Source of the DNA: an uncultured Oscillospiraceae bacterium
GTDB taxonomy: Bacteria; Bacillota; Clostridia; Oscillospirales; Ruminococcaceae
Direction: 5' to 3'
Length of the DNA: 64,000 bases
NCBI GenBank assembly: GCA_964536085.1
Contig: CAZHWR010000003.1
Span: 1,540-65,539, forward strand
A program made the position numbers and the translations under genes. A model generated the notes under the pieces. That model was not told where the DNA came from and searched no databases. It saw only the letters and a list, made by a program, of their open reading frames with translations. Below are positions 3,695 through 38,358 of this stretch, in pieces (the stretch's first letter is position 1; each line of letters starts with the position of its first letter).

Positions 3695-6397
3695 ATGAAG
3701 CTGGCAAAAAAACTCGCGCTTTTTATGGCGGTGGTTATGATTGTAAGTATGCTGCCCACAGCCCTTTCAGGCTCGCTTGCAGCGGGTTTCAAGGTTCTGA
3801 ACGTCACGTCCAACAAGGTGACGGTTTATGCAGGGAGCGTTTATCAAATCAAAACCAACGGCTCGAATGTGACGTACAAGTCAAACAAAAAGAGCGTTGC
3901 AAAGGTGAGCGACAGCGGTCTTGTTACGGCGAAGAAAAAGGGCACGGCGACAATCAGAGTGACTAACGCTTCGACCGGAAAAGCCGTTAAGCTGAAAATC
4001 CGCGTAAAAAAGCCCGTGGGTTATACCGTAAGCAAAAAAAGCGGAAGCTACACCAGAACCATAAAGGTAAAAATCAAAGCTAAAAAAGGATATACGGTTT
4101 ATTACACCGTGAACGGAAAATTCAAGCTTTCAAAGAAGATTAAAAGCAGAAAATCCAAGACCATCACTGTTAAGAAAAACACTACGCTGAATCTGTACAT
4201 TAAGAAAAATTCGGATAAAGTCACTGCAAAGCAGATGAAGAAAGCAAAGGGCAAGGCGGTAAACTGCCCCGAATATCAGTATATAATCAACAGTTCAGCC
4301 GCTTCGTTGTCCGGCGTTGCGCAAAGCAGCACAAGCTCGCCTGATACCGACATAGATATTGTCGATTCGACCGAGCTTGATAATCCTGTTGTGCCAAGCG
4401 CGGATGAAGCCGATTCTTCCGGCGCCAACACTGCGGACTGGGCTCAAGACGACGCACAGGGCGCGGATACCGACGAGCTGTGGTTTGCAATCGATTCGGT
4501 TAAATATGTTGCGCTTTCGGACGATGGCGTGACCGTAACCGATGAAAACGGCGAAGAATCTACTGACTCGGGAGTGAGCATGAAGTCCGGAGTGGTTAAA
4601 ATCACCGTGCCGGGGGTTTATGTGCTCAGCGGTACTCTTACAGACGCGAGCGTTCAGGTTAAAAGCGGAGAGGGAGAATATACGCTGATTTTAAACGGAG
4701 TGGATATTTCCTGTAGTTCGACCGCGGCGTTGTATGCTACCAAAAAAGCAACAAAATTGACCGTGACGCTTGCAAATGAAACTCAAAACAGCCTTAAAGG
4801 ACCCGAGGAGTACACATTTGAGGACGGAGAGGACGAGCCGGACGCCGCTATGTTTGTTAAAAAAGAGCTGGTTATAAACGGACGCGGCTCGCTTAGCGTT
4901 ACCGACCCGAATGGTGACGCGATCAAGTGCAAGGATGCATTGAAGGTCGCACAGGCGAGTATCACAGTAAACGCAGGCGACGACGGAATAACCGGAAAGG
5001 ATTCGTTTGCCGCGAGCAATACCGCGCTTAACATAACCTCTATCGGAGACGGAATTAAAACAAATATTCAAACCGACGAATCACTCGGATATGTTGATAT
5101 AAGCGATTCGAGCGTTACGATAAATTCCTCAGGTGACGGAATACAGGCGGATACCACGGCGAAGTTTGAAAACTCCGACATTATCATCACCACTAACTAT
5201 ACTGACGCTAACGACAGCTTTAAAGGCATAAAAGCGGGCGGAGAGCTTACACTTGACGATGGTTCTGCGGTTTTGGCGGGCTTTGTGTATATAGCGAGCG
5301 GGACGTTTAAGATAAACTCGGTGGAGGACGCTATACAAAGCAAAAAGGATATGCTTATTGCAGGTGGAAAAATTACCGTTGATTCGTACAACGACGGGAT
5401 TCAGGCAAAATACAATCTTACGATTTCGGGCGACGAGACCGTAATTGACGTTACGACCCACAAAAACTCCGCATATACGTTTATAGACAGCTACAAGGGC
5501 ATTAAAGCGGGTATAAGCTCAGATGACGGGACAGTCGAGTCTGACGGTACGCTTTTGATAACCGGCGGAACGATTACGGTAGATACTACCGCAGCGGGAA
5601 TAACGAATGACAGCGGCTCTGAAAAGGGCGATGACGCTATACATTGTAACAATATTATGCGTATCGACGGCGGCACTATGACGCTGGCCGCTGGCGATGA
5701 TGCGCTTCATTCGGACAGCGAGCTTGTTATAAACGGCGGGACTATCACTGTCACTGCCTGCTATGAGGGCATCGAGAGTTATGAGATATATTTAGAGGGC
5801 GGCGAGGTCAATGTAACCTCCAGAGACGATGGCGTTAACGCGGCGGGCGGAAACGACAGTTCAGGAAGCACGGGCGAAACTAATCCGTGGCGTCCGGGCG
5901 GAACAAATCCGTCAATGTCGTCCGAGAGCAGCGGAACGCTTTATATAAACGGAGGAACGTATTATATTAACGCTTCCGGCGACGGACTTGATTCGAACGG
6001 AAGTATTTACATGACGGGCGGAAATGTTTATGTTTACGGTCCGACCTCAGGCGGAAACGGAATATTTGACTACGGCGACTCAGACAGCGTGTTCAAAAAA
6101 AGCGGCGGTCTGCTTATAGGAACCGGCACGTCTGATATGGCGGTGTACCCCACCTGTACAAACGGCGCCATGTGCAGATATACGGTAAACGGCACGGCGG
6201 GAAAACAGTGTTCAATTACCGATTCGTCGGGAACATATACCTTCACGCCGCCCAAGTCGTATTCGCTTGTTATTGTTTCCGCTCCGGGAATGACGGCGAA
6301 TTCAAGCTATACGCTCACATATAACGGTTCTTCTTCGTCAACAGCGAAAGCCGTGCAATCGGTTTCAGGAAATTCGGGCGCAAATTCCAGACGATAA
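3695..6397 (+). CDS. Secreted multidomain protein: Big_2 Ig-like domain, Fn3-associated/CHB_HEX_C-like domain, Cthe_2159-type beta-helix carbohydrate-binding region
   Basis: Signal peptide MKLAKKLALFMAVVMIVSMLP after RBS AGGGAGG. Big_2 signature SNKKSVAKVSDSGLVTAKKKGTATIRV. Repeated GDDGI/GDGIK/GDGIQ/NDGIQ/DDAIH/DDALH/YEGIE/GDGLD turns are typical of the Cthe_2159 parallel beta-helix family. Confidence 0.75.
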   Translation: MKLAKKLALFMAVVMIVSMLPTALSGSLAAGFKVLNVTSNKVTVYAGSVYQIKTNGSNVTYKSNKKSVAKVSDSGLVTAKKKGTATIRVTNASTGKAVKLKIRVKKPVGYTVSKKSGSYTRTIKVKIKAKKGYTVYYTVNGKFKLSKKIKSRKSKTITVKKNTTLNLYIKKNSDKVTAKQMKKAKGKAVNCPEYQYIINSSAASLSGVAQSSTSSPDTDIDIVDSTELDNPVVPSADEADSSGANTADWAQDDAQGADTDELWFAIDSVKYVALSDDGVTVTDENGEESTDSGVSMKSGVVKITVPGVYVLSGTLTDASVQVKSGEGEYTLILNGVDISCSSTAALYATKKATKLTVTLANETQNSLKGPEEYTFEDGEDEPDAAMFVKKELVINGRGSLSVTDPNGDAIKCKDALKVAQASITVNAGDDGITGKDSFAASNTALNITSIGDGIKTNIQTDESLGYVDISDSSVTINSSGDGIQADTTAKFENSDIIITTNYTDANDSFKGIKAGGELTLDDGSAVLAGFVYIASGTFKINSVEDAIQSKKDMLIAGGKITVDSYNDGIQAKYNLTISGDETVIDVTTHKNSAYTFIDSYKGIKAGISSDDGTVESDGTLLITGGTITVDTTAAGITNDSGSEKGDDAIHCNNIMRIDGGTMTLAAGDDALHSDSELVINGGTITVTACYEGIESYEIYLEGGEVNVTSRDDGVNAAGGNDSSGSTGETNPWRPGGTNPSMSSESSGTLYINGGTYYINASGDGLDSNGSIYMTGGNVYVYGPTSGGNGIFDYGDSDSVFKKSGGLLIGTGTSDMAVYPTCTNGAMCRYTVNGTAGKQCSITDSSGTYTFTPPKSYSLVIVSAPGMTANSSYTLTYNGSSSSTAKAVQSVSGNSGANSRR

Positions 6398-33983: not shown

Positions 33984-34105
33984 ATCGGTTTGCTCTGACA
34001 ATTATAAAGCGGAGTCCGGCAAAGAGTTTGTTTATATAATGTAACCTAATGAACAGCCCCGTCATAAAATAATGTGTACGCAAACCATCGCGTTTGGAGG
34101 AAAGT

Positions 34106-34498
34106 ATGATGGATACGACTGTTTTGATTGCCGGAGGGGATAAACGGCAGATTTATGTGGCGAGACTGCTTGCGGCGGATTATAAGGTTTATGCAATCGG
34201 TCTTGAGGATTCTTTCGGCGACGTTATCAATATAAATTCTCTTTGCGAGCTTAGCGTTAAGCCCGACATTATCATTTTCCCGATTTTGTCGAGCGTGGAT
34301 AATGAGCATGTAAACATGCCGCTGTCGGATATCACGCTCAGAATAGAGGACGTTTTGGAATACGCAAAGCATTCTGCCGTTGTTTTAGCCGGGAAGCCGT
34401 GCGCAACGCTTTGCGAGCTTTGCGGAAGAAAAAATCTTAAGCTTATAGATTATTTTGAGCGTGAAGAACTCGCGGTTTTAAACGCAGTACCTACTGCG
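34106..34498 (+). CDS. dpaA: Dipicolinate synthase subunit A, 5' segment (gene split by intervening element)
   Basis: MMDTTVLIAGGDKRQIYVARLL...FEREELAVLNAVPTA matches the DpaA/SpoVFA N-terminal domain. RBS GGAGG sits 5 nt upstream. Beyond 34498 the ORF runs into unrelated element sequence. Confidence 0.9.
34482..34498 (+). repeat. Left copy of 17-bp direct repeat (attL core) ACGCAGTACCTACTGCG
   Basis: Identical to 37127-37143. Internally an inverted repeat, CGCAGTA-CC-TACTGCG. Confidence 0.9.
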
Positions 34499-35360
34499 TT
34501 CGTTTTTTTGCATGTGCCGTGCGGGTTTGAGCCTGTAAAAAAAGCTTTCTTGACACTATCGCCTCATGATGATTATTTATAATTATCCTGTTTTGAGTAT
34601 TTGTGCGGCGTGTATGGTTTAAATAGTCCACTGTTTCCTGTTTTCGGCAGACAAGGTCGCCGCAGTATTTTTCATTTTTCAGCATTTTGCGTATGGTTTC
34701 GGTTTTCCATTCACGTTCCGGGCGGCTGATGCGTTCGGCTATCTGACGCGGATTTAAGCCTTCGTAAACGCGCAGTCTGAAAATTTCCTTAACGGTCTTC
34801 GCCTGCTCTTCGTTGACTGTGAGCACGCCGTTTTTAAGGTCATAGCCGTATACGCCGTTTCCAAAGACAACGCCGCGCTTCATGCTTTGAAGCTGACCCC
34901 ATTTAACCCGCTCGGAGGTTTTACGGCTCTCCTCCTGAGCTATGGTAGAGAGTATGGAAAGCCTCAGCTCGCCGTCTGAGCTTAAGGTATTGATACCGTC
35001 GGACAAAAACAGCACACCGACGCCATGCTGCTTTAAAAGCCGTGTGTATGTAAGCGCGTCCACGGTGTTTCGGGCAAAGCGCGAGACCTCCTTTGTTATG
35101 ATAAGGTCGATTTCACCGCTGAGAGCGCAACCTATCATCTTTTTGAACGCCGTACGTTTTTTGATACTGGTTCCGGTTATTCCGCTGTCGGCGAATATTT
35201 CCGTCAGCCGCCAGTCGGGATTTTTACTAATGCAGTCGTAAAAATATCTTTTCTGCGCCTCAAGCGAATTTGCCTGGTCGGATTTGTCGGTCGAAACGCG
35301 GCAGTAGGCGCAAACGTTAAGCATGGGCGCACAGTCCGATCGGTTTTTCACATAGATCAC
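34491..35360 (-). CDS. Serine recombinase (resolvase catalytic domain plus 'recombinase' domain, with no zinc-ribbon/coiled-coil domain)
   Basis: YCRVSTDKSDQANSLEAQ (catalytic Ser), DSGITGTS, VSRFARN and AQEESRKTSERVKWG. The recombinase domain is ..YGYDL..VNEEQAKTVKEIF...W..ETIRKMLKNEKYCGD...HHEAIVSRKLFLQAQ. The stop TAG lies inside the 17-bp core. The start may instead be at 35351 or 35324. Confidence 0.85.
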   Translation of the reverse strand: MIYVKNRSDCAPMLNVCAYCRVSTDKSDQANSLEAQKRYFYDCISKNPDWRLTEIFADSGITGTSIKKRTAFKKMIGCALSGEIDLIITKEVSRFARNTVDALTYTRLLKQHGVGVLFLSDGINTLSSDGELRLSILSTIAQEESRKTSERVKWGQLQSMKRGVVFGNGVYGYDLKNGVLTVNEEQAKTVKEIFRLRVYEGLNPRQIAERISRPEREWKTETIRKMLKNEKYCGDLVCRKQETVDYLNHTRRTNTQNRIIINNHHEAIVSRKLFLQAQTRTAHAKKRTQ

Positions 35361-35445
35361 CTTTTTGCACGCGCCGACAACGCGCTTTTTGATAAATTTA
35401 TATTTTTTTTAAACGCTTTATATTCGCCCGCCGCGTATTTTGTAT

Positions 35446-35474
35446 TTGACATATGCGCGCTATGATTATAAAAT
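35446..35474 (+). promoter_or_regulatory. SigA-type promoter for the flippase gene, TTGACA-N17-TAAAAT
   Basis: TTGACA at 35446-35451, a 17-nt spacer and TAAAAT at 35469-35474, about 38 nt upstream of the ATG at 35512. Confidence 0.5.
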
Positions 35475-35511
35475 ATATGCAGTATTTACGGCAAAGGACG
35501 GCGGCGTTGAT

Positions 35512-37023
35512 ATGAGATTCAGAAGAAGCGCTTATAATTTAATAGTCGGCGTTTTGTGCCAGCTTGTTATTCTTGCGCTGGGGCTTGTTATTCCGCGGCT
35601 GTTTTTGGTGAACTTCGGCTCGGAAACAAACGGTCTTATTACGTCGATAAACGATATATTCGTTTATATAGCCCTGCTGGAAGCGGGAATCGGCGCGGCG
35701 ACTGTGCAGGCGCTTTACAAGCCTATTGTAAACGGGGATAAAAACAAGATAAACGAAATACTTTCAGCTACGTCATTTTACTATAAGCGCACGGGCGTTA
35801 TATATTTTATTGTGCTTTTGCTGTTTGCGTTTGTCTACCCGCTTATGCTGGATACGTCGATAGATTATAAAACCGTTGTGCTGGTCATCTTTTTCACCGG
35901 TATAGGAAACGTTATCAATTTTTTCTTTCAGGGCAAGTATAAGCAGCTGCTTTTGGCGGAGGGAAAGGCTTATATCATAACGATAATATCCTCCGCGGCT
36001 AATATTATTGCCAGCGTTTCAAAAATCGTTCTTATACTTTCGGGATTTGATATAGTTGCGGTGCAGACGGTGTATTTTGTACTGTCGATGTTTCAGATGG
36101 CGTTTTTTGAAGCGTACATCAGGCGCAACTACAAATGGCTCAATTTAAAGGCGACCCCGGATTACGGCGCAATATCCCAGAAAAACGCGGTCCTTGTTCA
36201 TCAAATCAGCGGAATCGTTTTCAAGAACACCGACGTTGTTATACTTTCTCTTGTCTATGATTTGAAGATGGCGAGCGTATATATAATGTACAACCTTATC
36301 TTCAATGTCATGGAAAATTTTATTACAACGATCAACGACAGTGTTGTAGCGGCGCTTGGACAGGAGTATAACAGGGATAAAAACAGCTATGCGAAGCTTT
36401 ACGATTTTTACGAGCTGGGTTATTTTGCAATGTGTTTTATTATATGTACGGTCGTTTATGCGATAATAATCCCGTTTATGCGGCTTTACACGGCGGGAGT
36501 CACCGATATCAACTATTTTATCGACTATCTGCCGCTTGCATTTGTCATAATGAAATTCTTAAATTGGTGCAGGACTCCGTCTGCATACACAATAAATTTT
36601 GCGGGTAAATTTATCGAAACAAGAAAAAAGGCGCTCACGGAAGCGGTCATCAACATAGCCGTTTCGCTCGTTTTAGTAAAGCCTCTTGGTATTTTCGGCG
36701 TTGTGGCTGGGTCGGCGGCGGCGTTTTTATACAGCGCGGTTTATTCGATATGGTATGTTAACGCAAAGCTTATTGACTTAAACTATAAAAAAACCGTGTT
36801 CAGATGGGTTGTTTTTATTGCGGCGTTTTTCGCGTTTTCATTCGTGCTGTCGCATATAAGCGTGGAAATAAGCGGTTATTTTACGCTTGTTTTGTTTGCG
36901 GCGGCGGTCGGTGTAGCGGCTGTGATTTACTACGCCGCGGTGTGCATGATATTCAGCCGCAAAACTTGTGTAAACTCCGTTAAAGCGGCGTTACAGATTT
37001 TAAAAAATCGAAAATATAGATAA
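35512..37023 (+). CDS. Oligosaccharide/polysaccharide flippase (Wzx-like, MOP superfamily)
   Basis: 503 aa with about 12-14 TM helices. The N-terminal block IPRLFLVNFGSETNGLITSINDIFVYIALLEAGIGAATVQALYKP is typical of EPS/teichoic Wzx flippases. Confidence 0.75.
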   Translation: MRFRRSAYNLIVGVLCQLVILALGLVIPRLFLVNFGSETNGLITSINDIFVYIALLEAGIGAATVQALYKPIVNGDKNKINEILSATSFYYKRTGVIYFIVLLLFAFVYPLMLDTSIDYKTVVLVIFFTGIGNVINFFFQGKYKQLLLAEGKAYIITIISSAANIIASVSKIVLILSGFDIVAVQTVYFVLSMFQMAFFEAYIRRNYKWLNLKATPDYGAISQKNAVLVHQISGIVFKNTDVVILSLVYDLKMASVYIMYNLIFNVMENFITTINDSVVAALGQEYNRDKNSYAKLYDFYELGYFAMCFIICTVVYAIIIPFMRLYTAGVTDINYFIDYLPLAFVIMKFLNWCRTPSAYTINFAGKFIETRKKALTEAVINIAVSLVLVKPLGIFGVVAGSAAAFLYSAVYSIWYVNAKLIDLNYKKTVFRWVVFIAAFFAFSFVLSHISVEISGYFTLVLFAAAVGVAAVIYYAAVCMIFSRKTCVNSVKAALQILKNRKYR

Positions 37024-37058
37024 AAGCCTTATTTTGATGACATAAAATTGAATATTTT

Positions 37059-37101
37059 GCGCCCGCCGCGAATCAAATTTTGATTCGCGGCGGGCTTTTT
37101 G
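37059..37101 (+). terminator. Rho-independent terminator of the flippase cassette (15-bp stem)
   Basis: GCCCGCCGCGAATCA / TGATTCGCGGCGGGC followed by TTTTT, 26 bp before the right repeat. Confidence 0.85.
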
Positions 37102-37126
37102 CATATAAGACTGTTTGACTTTTCTG

Positions 37127-37143
37127 ACGCAGTACCTACTGCG
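37127..37143 (+). repeat. Right copy of 17-bp direct repeat (attR core) ACGCAGTACCTACTGCG
   Basis: Identical to 34482-34498. Confidence 0.9.
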
Positions 37144-37623
37144 GAGGGAGCGATCGCGATAGCCGTAGATCGTTTGCCCTTCACATTGTATGGTTCGGAA
37201 TGCATAGTCACCGGATTTGGAAGGATAGCCAAGGTGCTTGTTAGGCTTTTGACCGCGTTCGGCGCGCATGTAACGGTTTCGGTCAGAAAGCAGAGCGATC
37301 TTGCATGGGCGAAAATTTACGGCGCGGATGCGGTTAAAATATCGGGGCTTCCGAAAGCCGCAAAAAACGCGGACGTTATCTTCAACACCGTTCCCGCGGT
37401 ATTGTTTGACAAGCGCACTCTGCAGGTTTTAAAGAAAGACTGTCTTGTTATCGATCTTGCCTCGAAGCCGGGAGGAGTGGATTTCGACGCGGCCAAGGAG
37501 CTTTCGTTAAACACGGTGTGGGCGTTGTCGCTCCCCGGAAAATCCGCTCCTGTCAGCGCGGGCGCGATTATAAAAGACACGATCGGCAATATATTGTCGG
37601 AGTTGGATGAAGAAGAAATCTAA
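37144..37623 (+). CDS. dpaA: Dipicolinate synthase subunit A, 3' segment
   Basis: EGAIAIAVDRLPFTLYGSECIVTGFGRIAKVLVRLL (NAD-binding GxGxxA) ...IDLASKPGGVDF. In frame with the 5' segment across the repeat. No start codon or RBS of its own at the homology boundary. Confidence 0.9.
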   Translation, partial: EGAIAIAVDRLPFTLYGSECIVTGFGRIAKVLVRLLTAFGAHVTVSVRKQSDLAWAKIYGADAVKISGLPKAAKNADVIFNTVPAVLFDKRTLQVLKKDCLVIDLASKPGGVDFDAAKELSLNTVWALSLPGKSAPVSAGAIIKDTIGNILSELDEEEI

Positions 37624-37788
37624 AAAACAGGTCGAACACAGACGGACTTTGGCTTGCCCGTTGGCGGGGCTGTTCTGTGCTTTTAAGCTTTCGTCCGCGC
37701 GATTTGTTGTCTGCGGCGACGTTTGACCCAACTGCTCGGCGCAGGCCGCATTTGCGTTATTTGTGAAAGAAGGGAATGGTTATACAAA

Positions 37789-38358
37789 ATGGCAAAAACA
37801 AGGCTTGGATTTGCACTTTGCGGCTCGTTTTGCACCTTCAGCCGGGCAATATCTGAAATGGAGAAGCTGAGCGAGCGGTATGATATATATCCGATAATGT
37901 CGCAAAACGCGGCACAGACCGATACCCGTTTCGGAAAGGCGCACGAGCATATAGACAGGATAGAATCCATATGCGGTAAAAAAATAATAAGCGATATCTG
38001 CTCAGCGGAGCCTATAGGTCCGAAGGATATGATAGATATCCTTTTAATAGCACCCTGCACGGGAAATACTCTTGCAAAGCTTGCAAATTCTGTGACAGAC
38101 ACATCGGTAACGATGGCGGCAAAATCGCATTTAAGAGTTCAAAAGCCGGTCGTAGTCGCGCTTGCGAGCAACGACAGCCTTGCCGGAACAGCCAAAAATT
38201 TAGGGAATCTTTTGAATTATAAAAATTATTTCTTTGTTCCGTTTGGGCAGGATAATCCGGTTAAAAAACCGTTTTCTATTGTGGCGGATTTTGAAAAAAT
38301 TGATGAAACTTTGCAATTTGCGCTAAAAAAAGAACAAATTCAACCGATATTAATATGA
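37789..38358 (+). CDS. dpaB: Dipicolinate synthase subunit B (flavoprotein)
   Basis: MAKTRLGFALCGSFCTF...LLIAPCTGNTLAKLANSVTDTSVTMAAKSHLR matches DpaB/SpoVFB. Confidence 0.88.
   Translation: MAKTRLGFALCGSFCTFSRAISEMEKLSERYDIYPIMSQNAAQTDTRFGKAHEHIDRIESICGKKIISDICSAEPIGPKDMIDILLIAPCTGNTLAKLANSVTDTSVTMAAKSHLRVQKPVVVALASNDSLAGTAKNLGNLLNYKNYFFVPFGQDNPVKKPFSIVADFEKIDETLQFALKKEQIQPILI

Follow-up and report, generated by a model that had tools for sequence, protein, structure and literature searches.

This report concerns a 64,000-nucleotide stretch of the genome of an uncultured Oscillospiraceae bacterium (GenBank assembly GCA_964536085.1, contig CAZHWR010000003.1, positions 1,540 to 65,539), referred to below as the window, in which the mother-cell gene dpaA (spoVFA) is split by an element that carries a short serine recombinase gene and is bounded by two copies of the 17-mer ACGCAGTACCTACTGCG. 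We consider it probable (about 0.7), from the sequence comparisons reported here, that these copies are the attachment sites attL and attR of a domesticated intervening element of 2.6 kb that excises from dpaA by exchange at the central dinucleotide CC.

The 17-mer was found as two exact copies on the plus strand, at 34482-34498 and 37127-37143, with 0 mismatches between them. A search of the whole genome (1.95 Mb, 94 contigs) gave a count of 2, both in the window, and 0 were expected by chance (100 dinucleotide-preserving shuffles). Identity between attL and attR was confined to the 17-mer and ended at both of its edges, with 0 extension on either side. The arms flanking the CC at 34490-34491 and at 37135-37136, CGCAGTA and TACTGCG, are each other's exact reverse complement, and the core codes for (N)-A-V-P-T-A in the dpaA frame. 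When the flanks were joined across one core (34094-34498 to 37144-37623), an open DpaA of 290 amino acids (aa) was obtained, which includes ...ELAVLNAVPTAEGAIAIA... and has the DpaA_N and NAD-binding domains of Pfam. The interrupted gene is a mother-cell gene and precise excision would restore its frame, as is characteristic of intervening elements. The duplication, the reverse-complementary arms with their positions and the coding of A-V-P-T-A had been described in an earlier sequence-only reading of this DNA and were confirmed here, the joined flanks giving an uninterrupted DpaA. That reading had also reported no obvious symmetry just outside the core. This holds in the window beyond 8 base pairs (bp), but the reconstructed attP has 8-bp arms (A...T), 1 base longer than the 7-bp arms of the 17-mer. 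No attP symmetry past these arms was found in the window genome in the attL/attR alignment. The sites are as follows:

34482-34498, plus strand: attL core (17-mer), its left half from dpaA (B arm) and its right half from the element (P' arm); exact copy, aligned with nine related elements.
37127-37143, plus strand: attR core (17-mer), its left half from the element (P arm) and its right half from dpaA (B' arm); exact copy, placed by the same alignment.
34490-34491, plus strand: central CC of attL, the putative crossover dinucleotide (2 bp), made up of the first two bases of the Pro codon.
37135-37136, plus strand: central CC of attR, putative crossover dinucleotide on the same basis.
34499-34503, plus strand: TTCGT, the outermost P'-arm bases still common to the sister element L056 in the DNA alignment of the two.

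In addition to the window, dpaA was found to be split at the same codon in nine further elements, of 2.7-17 kb:

L056/L057 (2715 bp) and L058 (2788 bp), Logan contigs: the same two-gene mini-element, with recombinases 75% and 68% identical, respectively, to that of the window.
L062 (3440 bp), metagenome-assembled genome of an uncultured member of the Clostridia: a 479-aa recombinase and an L,D-transpeptidase.
G012 (7.9 kb) and G003 (13.2 kb): dpaA elements from the same family as the window organism.
G161, G347, G193 and G302 (7.4-17.3 kb): dpaA elements from different families within the order.

The ten attL/attR pairs were aligned on the Pro codon, with L056 and L057 counted as one element. 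Uninterrupted identity between attL and attR extended over 17-18 bp in the window and L056, 9 in L058, 12 in L062, 8 in G012, 10 in G003, 20 in G347, 16 in G193, 12 in G302 and 2 (the CC itself) in G161. The CC of the Pro codon was the same in attL and attR in all ten pairs, and positions -1 and +1 in 9 of the 10. In G161 the CC is flanked by mismatches and is the only shared central dinucleotide that rebuilds the conserved NAVPTAEG, the other shared dinucleotides giving NAPPTAEG or NAVPGAEG. The attP of each element was then rebuilt from the left arm of attR and the right arm of attL and scanned for its axis of symmetry. Summed over nine independent elements, symmetric matches numbered 125 for the axis that passes between the two C's, against 56 ± 8 (maximum 72) at 32 other axes. 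The outer arms alone (positions 10-25, outside the core and free of dpaA coding) gave 73 against 37.5 ± 5, and symmetric positions reached 22 of 26 in G347 and 19 of 26 in G161. Two features of the sites of large serine recombinases (LSRs) are present, namely an attP that is an imperfect inverted repeat centred on CC, of which the window retains the 8-bp arms only, and an identity shared by attL and attR that contains a non-palindromic central dinucleotide. It is established that cleavage by serine recombinases generates 2-bp overhangs and that the polarity of recombination is set by a non-palindromic centre (stated in PMC5499854). The symmetry of attB was also considered as independent evidence and was dropped as weak (95 matches versus a maximum of 89 at other axes), since other axes also score high through coding periodicity.

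Every prediction of a CC crossover that could be tested at the sequence level held. The invariance of CC in ten of ten pairs, the product expected for G161 and the dyad axis of attP support a serine-recombinase crossover site centred on CC, as the sequence-only reading had proposed. CC is very probably the crossover of the whole element family and, by extension, cleavage in this system would take place there. This comparison establishes that the repeat is of site-specific origin, where the dyad axis lies and that CC is invariant, and the 17-mer repeat is the trace left by a recombinase clade that integrates site-specifically and is specialized on the A-V-P-T-A codons of dpaA. Excision in this organism is what we infer from it.

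With respect to the orientation of these elements, the recombinase gene of G347, G193 and G302 (L142, L144 and L145) adjoins attL in the orientation of dpaA with its 5' end at the junction, while that of the window group is antisense to dpaA with its 3' end at attL. Two architectures are found, and the target codon and the polarity of CC are common to both.

It must be noted that part of the palindrome follows from the protein. The codon series GCN-GTN-CCN-ACN-GCN is self-complementary about CC at 4 of the 7 arm pairs. These four forced pairs were present in all 15 empty A-V-P-T-A sites, and 3 A-I-P-T-A sites lose one of them. No empty site had all seven pairs (0/18) and two had six. The three wobble pairs are the informative part. 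They were all complementary in 5 of the 10 occupied sites (window, L056, L058, L062 and G347) versus 0 of the 18 empty ones (Fisher p = 0.0026, or p = 0.007 with the window and L056 counted once); therefore, something other than the protein code also reads the arms. The palindrome is nevertheless less improbable than it appears, most of the attB palindrome being imposed, as the codons indicate, by the protein sequence.

Under the reading preferred here, recombinase subunits would occupy the inverted (A)CGCAGTA half-sites flanking the centre, cleave at the central CC with a 2-bp stagger and exchange the half-sites. The element would leave as a circle and dpaA would be rejoined in frame, a single joining orientation being possible because CC is not its own complement. 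The short enzyme, consisting of the catalytic and the 'Recombinase' DNA-binding domains, would act in excision only, on half-sites some 13 bp long, and would do so with neither a directionality factor nor the zinc-ribbon/coiled-coil apparatus for directionality. The element, 2645 bp between repeats with 2 genes, and its surroundings comprise:

34094-34498, plus strand: dpaA (spoVFA) 5' segment, up to ...L-N-A-V-P-T-A, with its likely start at ATG 34106; Pfam DpaA_N, E-value 2.7e-23.
34491-35360, minus strand: short serine recombinase of 289 aa when read from the first GTG (277 aa when read from the ATG), with the Pfam Resolvase and Recombinase domains only.
35446-35474, plus strand: TTGACA-17-TAAAAT, a sigma-70-like promoter that lies upstream of the cargo gene; consensus scan.
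35512-37023, plus strand: cargo gene that the sister elements have conserved as well; its product is a membrane protein of 503 aa with multiple passes.
37061-37100, plus strand: terminator-like hairpin of 16 pairs plus a T-run, which ends the cargo gene 26 bp before attR; sequence scan.
37127-37623, plus strand: dpaA 3' segment, from A-V-P-T-A-E-G... to the stop; Pfam 2-Hacid_dh_C and other NAD-binding families.
37723-38358, plus strand: dpaB (spoVFB), intact and directly downstream; Pfam Flavoprotein, E-value 2.1e-24.

The recombinase has a catalytic domain (PF00239, E-value 6.9e-30) and a second domain, PF07508, with no others in Pfam, and the catalytic motifs YCRVSTD, SRFARN and QEESRKTSERV are preserved in the alignment. 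Its close homologues in 60 related genomes are 53-58% identical and mostly have open reading frames of 520-620 aa, and the homologues of G012, L062 and L058 also match PF13408. The window protein is, by its domains, LSR-descended and LSR-like in its working, yet an incomplete LSR. Its TAG stop, at 34491-34493, lies within the attL core. An open reading frame extending across the circular junction was considered and is excluded by this TAG in the shared core; because of that location, the recombinase product would be identical in both states. The position of the stop is peculiar to the window lineage and came about through a 58-bp deletion, seen in the alignment to L056, which also removed the P' arm beyond +13. 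In L056 the stop is 68 bp earlier, in L058 it lies just before the core and, in general, the reading frame ends inside attL in the window and at most 70 bp from the core in L056, L058 and L062.

Several comparisons bear on whether this short gene is maintained. The truncation point is common to the window and L056 within a few codons, and synonymous divergence (dS) since then is about 1.55. Over the 268 codons common to both, the recombinase has no stop and a ratio of nonsynonymous to synonymous divergence (dN/dS) of 0.13. The corresponding values against L056 are 0.14 and 0.115 for the 5' and 3' halves of dpaA, 0.08 for the cargo gene and 0.065 for dpaB, all of them rough given that dS is saturated. 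The element-derived half-cores are identical in the window and L056 (attR ACGCAGTA, 8/8 bases; attL TACTGCGTTCGT, 12/12 bases), while the spacer adjoining them is identical at 42 of 96 positions. Because the short gene, the dpaA halves and the half-cores are conserved across species, a domesticated excision-only mini-element is favoured over a fossil; the former seems to us somewhat more probable than not, the latter unlikely. That the window copy still excises with its own short enzyme is, on these data, somewhat better than an even chance.

The rough dN/dS values and the codon-imposed arm pairs already count against this reading, and the following points weigh against it as well. The recombinase has shrunk from its 3' end (479 aa in L062, 368 in L058, 272 in L056 and 289 in the window), and such stepwise erosion, as traced in these sequences, is also compatible with decay. 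No contig with an attB or attP junction was found in the assembly, which holds two core copies only, and no convincing mother-cell-type promoter motif was found upstream of the recombinase gene, where there is a weak sigma-70-like match only. The zinc ribbon and coiled coil that characterize LSRs are lacking in the window enzyme; in L058 the 368-aa recombinase retains the zinc ribbon and has lost the coiled coil. These are the domains thought essential for att recognition and control of direction. They read the outer half-sites and control synapsis, and we know of no serine recombinase lacking the zinc ribbon for which recombination of att sites has been shown so far. Moreover, the phiC31 integrase is already inactive without the coiled coil alone (PMC10754689). 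A precedent in favour of the reading is the LI integrase, which, once deprived of its coiled coil, recombines attL x attR with an efficiency of about 2% and no directionality factor (PMC10754689).

If these points were decisive, the sites would be fossils: an old integration at CC, a recombinase that died after losing the zinc ribbon and coiled coil, and 17-mers left as relics, with dpaA permanently split and either non-functional or working as two polypeptides. Such an outcome would agree with a recombinase that matches the first half only of full-length models (positions 8-287 of the 542-position CcrB model), with the progressive erosion of its 3' end across species, with the deleted P' arm, with a 1-bp deletion in the dpaA 3' segment of the sister contig L057 and with the missing junction contig. 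We nevertheless regard it as unlikely, although it is the most serious of the alternatives. The truncated gene and both halves of dpaA have remained open, with dN/dS of 0.12-0.14 despite saturated dS, and the core halves that do not belong to dpaA are perfectly conserved beside a spacer of 44% identity. In addition, the genes for import of dipicolinic acid (DPA) are intact, and the L057 indel, which falls in a G6 run, may be a mistake of the automatic assembly.

The sites might instead be recombined in trans by another full-length recombinase, from contig C21 or C68, the short protein being an accessory or a remnant. The genome does hold two other zinc-ribbon recombinase genes, with open frames of 537 and 610 aa (G000:C21:28272-29333 and G000:C68:567-728). 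However, identity to the short enzyme is only 29% for the C21 protein, the C68 protein gave no match to that enzyme at E <= 1e-5, no orphan zinc-ribbon/coiled-coil fragment of the dpaA clade was found in the genome, and purifying selection on the catalytic domain of the short gene requires a function of its own. We consider this explanation quite improbable.

A crossover within the core but away from CC, at the neighbouring AC or CT or at CA/CG five bases to the left, is slightly less probable still. The 17-bp identity in the window genome cannot by itself place the cut, and positions -5 and -4 also agree between attL and attR in all ten elements. Against this, L058 and G003 exclude positions to the left of -2 and G012, L062 and G302 those to the right of +1, while G161 leaves CC alone among the shared dinucleotides if DpaA is to be rebuilt. 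The dyad axis falls between the two C's, and TA is palindromic and would lose polarity.

Finally, a target-site duplication left by transposition, which the sequence-only reading had named as a possible refutation, with the palindrome a mere by-product of the A-V-P-T-A codons, can hardly be entertained: four of the seven arm pairs do follow from the codons alone, but there is one element copy per genome (and only two core copies in this one), ten elements in several families share one insertion point with a shared stretch of 2-20 bp that is not fixed in length, the element-side arms mirror the gene-side arms, complementarity of the three free wobble pairs is much more frequent in occupied than in empty sites, and the enzyme is a serine recombinase and not a DDE transposase.

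Returning to the domesticated element, we propose tentatively, at somewhat less than an even chance, that the 289-aa protein is a natural functional minimal LSR descendant that recognizes inner half-sites of about 13 bp and recombines attL with attR within the mother cell in a factor-independent, excision-only manner. In this regard, recombinases of about 300 aa without a zinc ribbon were also found at the edges of elements that split cotJC, and if the proposal is true these enzymes would represent a recurrent class of domesticated excisionases. The distribution of homologue lengths, taken as evidence for such a short class, is weakened by contig ends and score bias. The cotJC recombinases (L160/L161 and L162, each at 5001-5909) are 302 aa long and 54-56% identical to that of the window; Mn_catalase fragments of cotJC lie on both sides of the element, beside cotJA/cotJB. 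The attP rebuilt for L160, ATGTACACGATGTA-GG-TATGTCGTGTACAT, has 14-bp arms with 12 of 14 symmetric positions and starts 5 bp past the recombinase stop.

The closest known parallel is SPbeta, whose recombinase SprA acts in spsM of Bacillus subtilis (Abe et al. 2017, PMC5499854) and which is likewise a serine-recombinase element splitting a mother-cell sporulation gene. The 16-bp core of SprA (ACAGATAA/AGCTGTAT) was shown experimentally to be cut in the middle of a short inverted repeat (PMC5499854), and the shared core of about 16 bp that the sequence-only reading attributed to it is accurate according to the same source. In both systems a core of 16-17 bp is present in attP, attB, attL and attR, forms an inverted repeat and has a non-palindromic central dinucleotide inside a codon, and precise excision rebuilds the reading frame, which for the window is a prediction. 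SPbeta differs in having a full-length SprA, the directionality factor SprB, attP arms of about 25 bp, an AA centre and the 134 kb of an active phage. The window element has a CC centre, 2.6 kb, one cargo gene, a recombinase without zinc ribbon or coiled coil and no candidate directionality factor: no gene for one was found in the element, the recombinase and the membrane protein being its only genes.

Skin elements of sigK are also comparable. Their recombinases include SpoIVCA and, in C. difficile, CD1231, which acts with the directionality factor CD1234, and two-gene skins of 2.6 kb have been listed (Galperin et al. 2022, bioRxiv 10.1101/2022.02.25.481979). Like the dpaA elements, they vary in size (2.6-48 kb), have the recombinase gene at an edge and as the only shared gene, and are inherited with the host (bioRxiv 10.1101/2022.02.25.481979). 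The differences are that the target in the window is dpaA and not sigK and that the window recombinase is truncated. The element gin, in gerE of Bacillus cereus ATCC 10987, is likewise a non-prophage intervening element in a late mother-cell gene, with a 9-bp shared sequence within an imperfect inverted repeat of 27 bp, and a predicted central dinucleotide (PMC5595907). Another element, vfbin, is named in PMC5499854 as lying in spoVFB/dpaB of B. weihenstephanensis, and its target, going by that naming, would be the partner subunit of the enzyme to which DpaA belongs. Both gin and vfbin differ from the window element in target gene, host class (Bacilli versus Clostridia), core and the possession of full-length recombinases. 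The nearest laboratory analogue of a truncated enzyme capable of excision is the Listeria (LI) integrase without its coiled coil, which like the window enzyme lacks the directionality module (PMC10754689). That deletion was engineered and kept the zinc ribbon, while the natural window protein has lost the zinc ribbon too; the 368-aa enzyme of L058 is the closer match to the engineered LI integrase.

The reading of the att core follows textbook serine-recombinase logic, and comparison alone was enough to pin the crossover to one dinucleotide. More broadly, dpaA appears as a recurrent target of elements in gut Clostridia, a role for which no mention was found in the literature searched. The unusual part is that recombinase and sites have been conserved after the loss of domains thought to be essential for recognition and direction. 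If active, the pair would be the smallest natural site and enzyme of the family, at about 28 bp and 289 aa, and would work in one direction only without the help of an accessory factor, which bears on the evolution of directionality and on the design of recombinase tools. For annotators, caution is advisable before such split dpaA genes are called pseudogenes.

As for the state of the gene, no intact DpaA (empty site) above 56% identity was found among 5.8 billion proteins. Because no intact DpaA is closer than this, every known member of the clade has a split dpaA, the split state being fixed. SpoIVA and the DPA channel SpoVAC/SpoVAEB are intact in the window genome. Together with the fixed split, the preserved catalytic motifs and the cotJC recombinases of about 300 aa, this counts in favour of continued function.

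The cargo protein gave no match in Pfam or NCBIfam, even at E <= 10. Its homologues, at 41-46% identity, are from Ruminococcaceae, Oscillospiraceae and one Bacillus species. The homologue of Bacillus sp. MRMR6 (44%; L150 4001-5548) lies within a polysaccharide cluster with GT2, GT4, epimerase, Bac_transf and DegT genes, and this gene context makes a polysaccharide flippase or polymerase plausible. The cargo of L062 (4088-5710 in locus coordinates) is a 540-aa L,D-transpeptidase with YkuD and PG_binding_4 domains, so that in both cases, the window type and L062, the cargo of the mini-element is a cell-envelope gene. The TTATAAT block of the cargo promoter region is conserved in three species, and a weaker sigma-70-like site on the minus strand (35494-35465) overlaps this promoter and faces the recombinase gene.

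At attL, the palindrome and the T-run that follows it (CGTTTTTTTG, window 34481-34500) resemble the hairpin of an intrinsic terminator on the dpaA sense strand in the integrated state, and could stop transcription of the truncated 5' fragment of dpaA. The T-run is a product of the lineage-specific 58-bp deletion and is not present at that place in L056.

L057 and L056 come from the same species in different samples and differ over 5.9 kb by 1 mismatch and the 1-bp deletion. The latter falls in the G6 run (CCGGGGGGAG -> CCGGGGGAG, about 980-990) and frameshifts the dpaA 3' segment, and is due either to misassembly or to genuine decay or phase variation. In another genome, a fragment of 44 codons (G036:C1:76725-76856), 64% identical to DpaA residues 201-244, was found 18 kb upstream of the intact dpaA of that genome.

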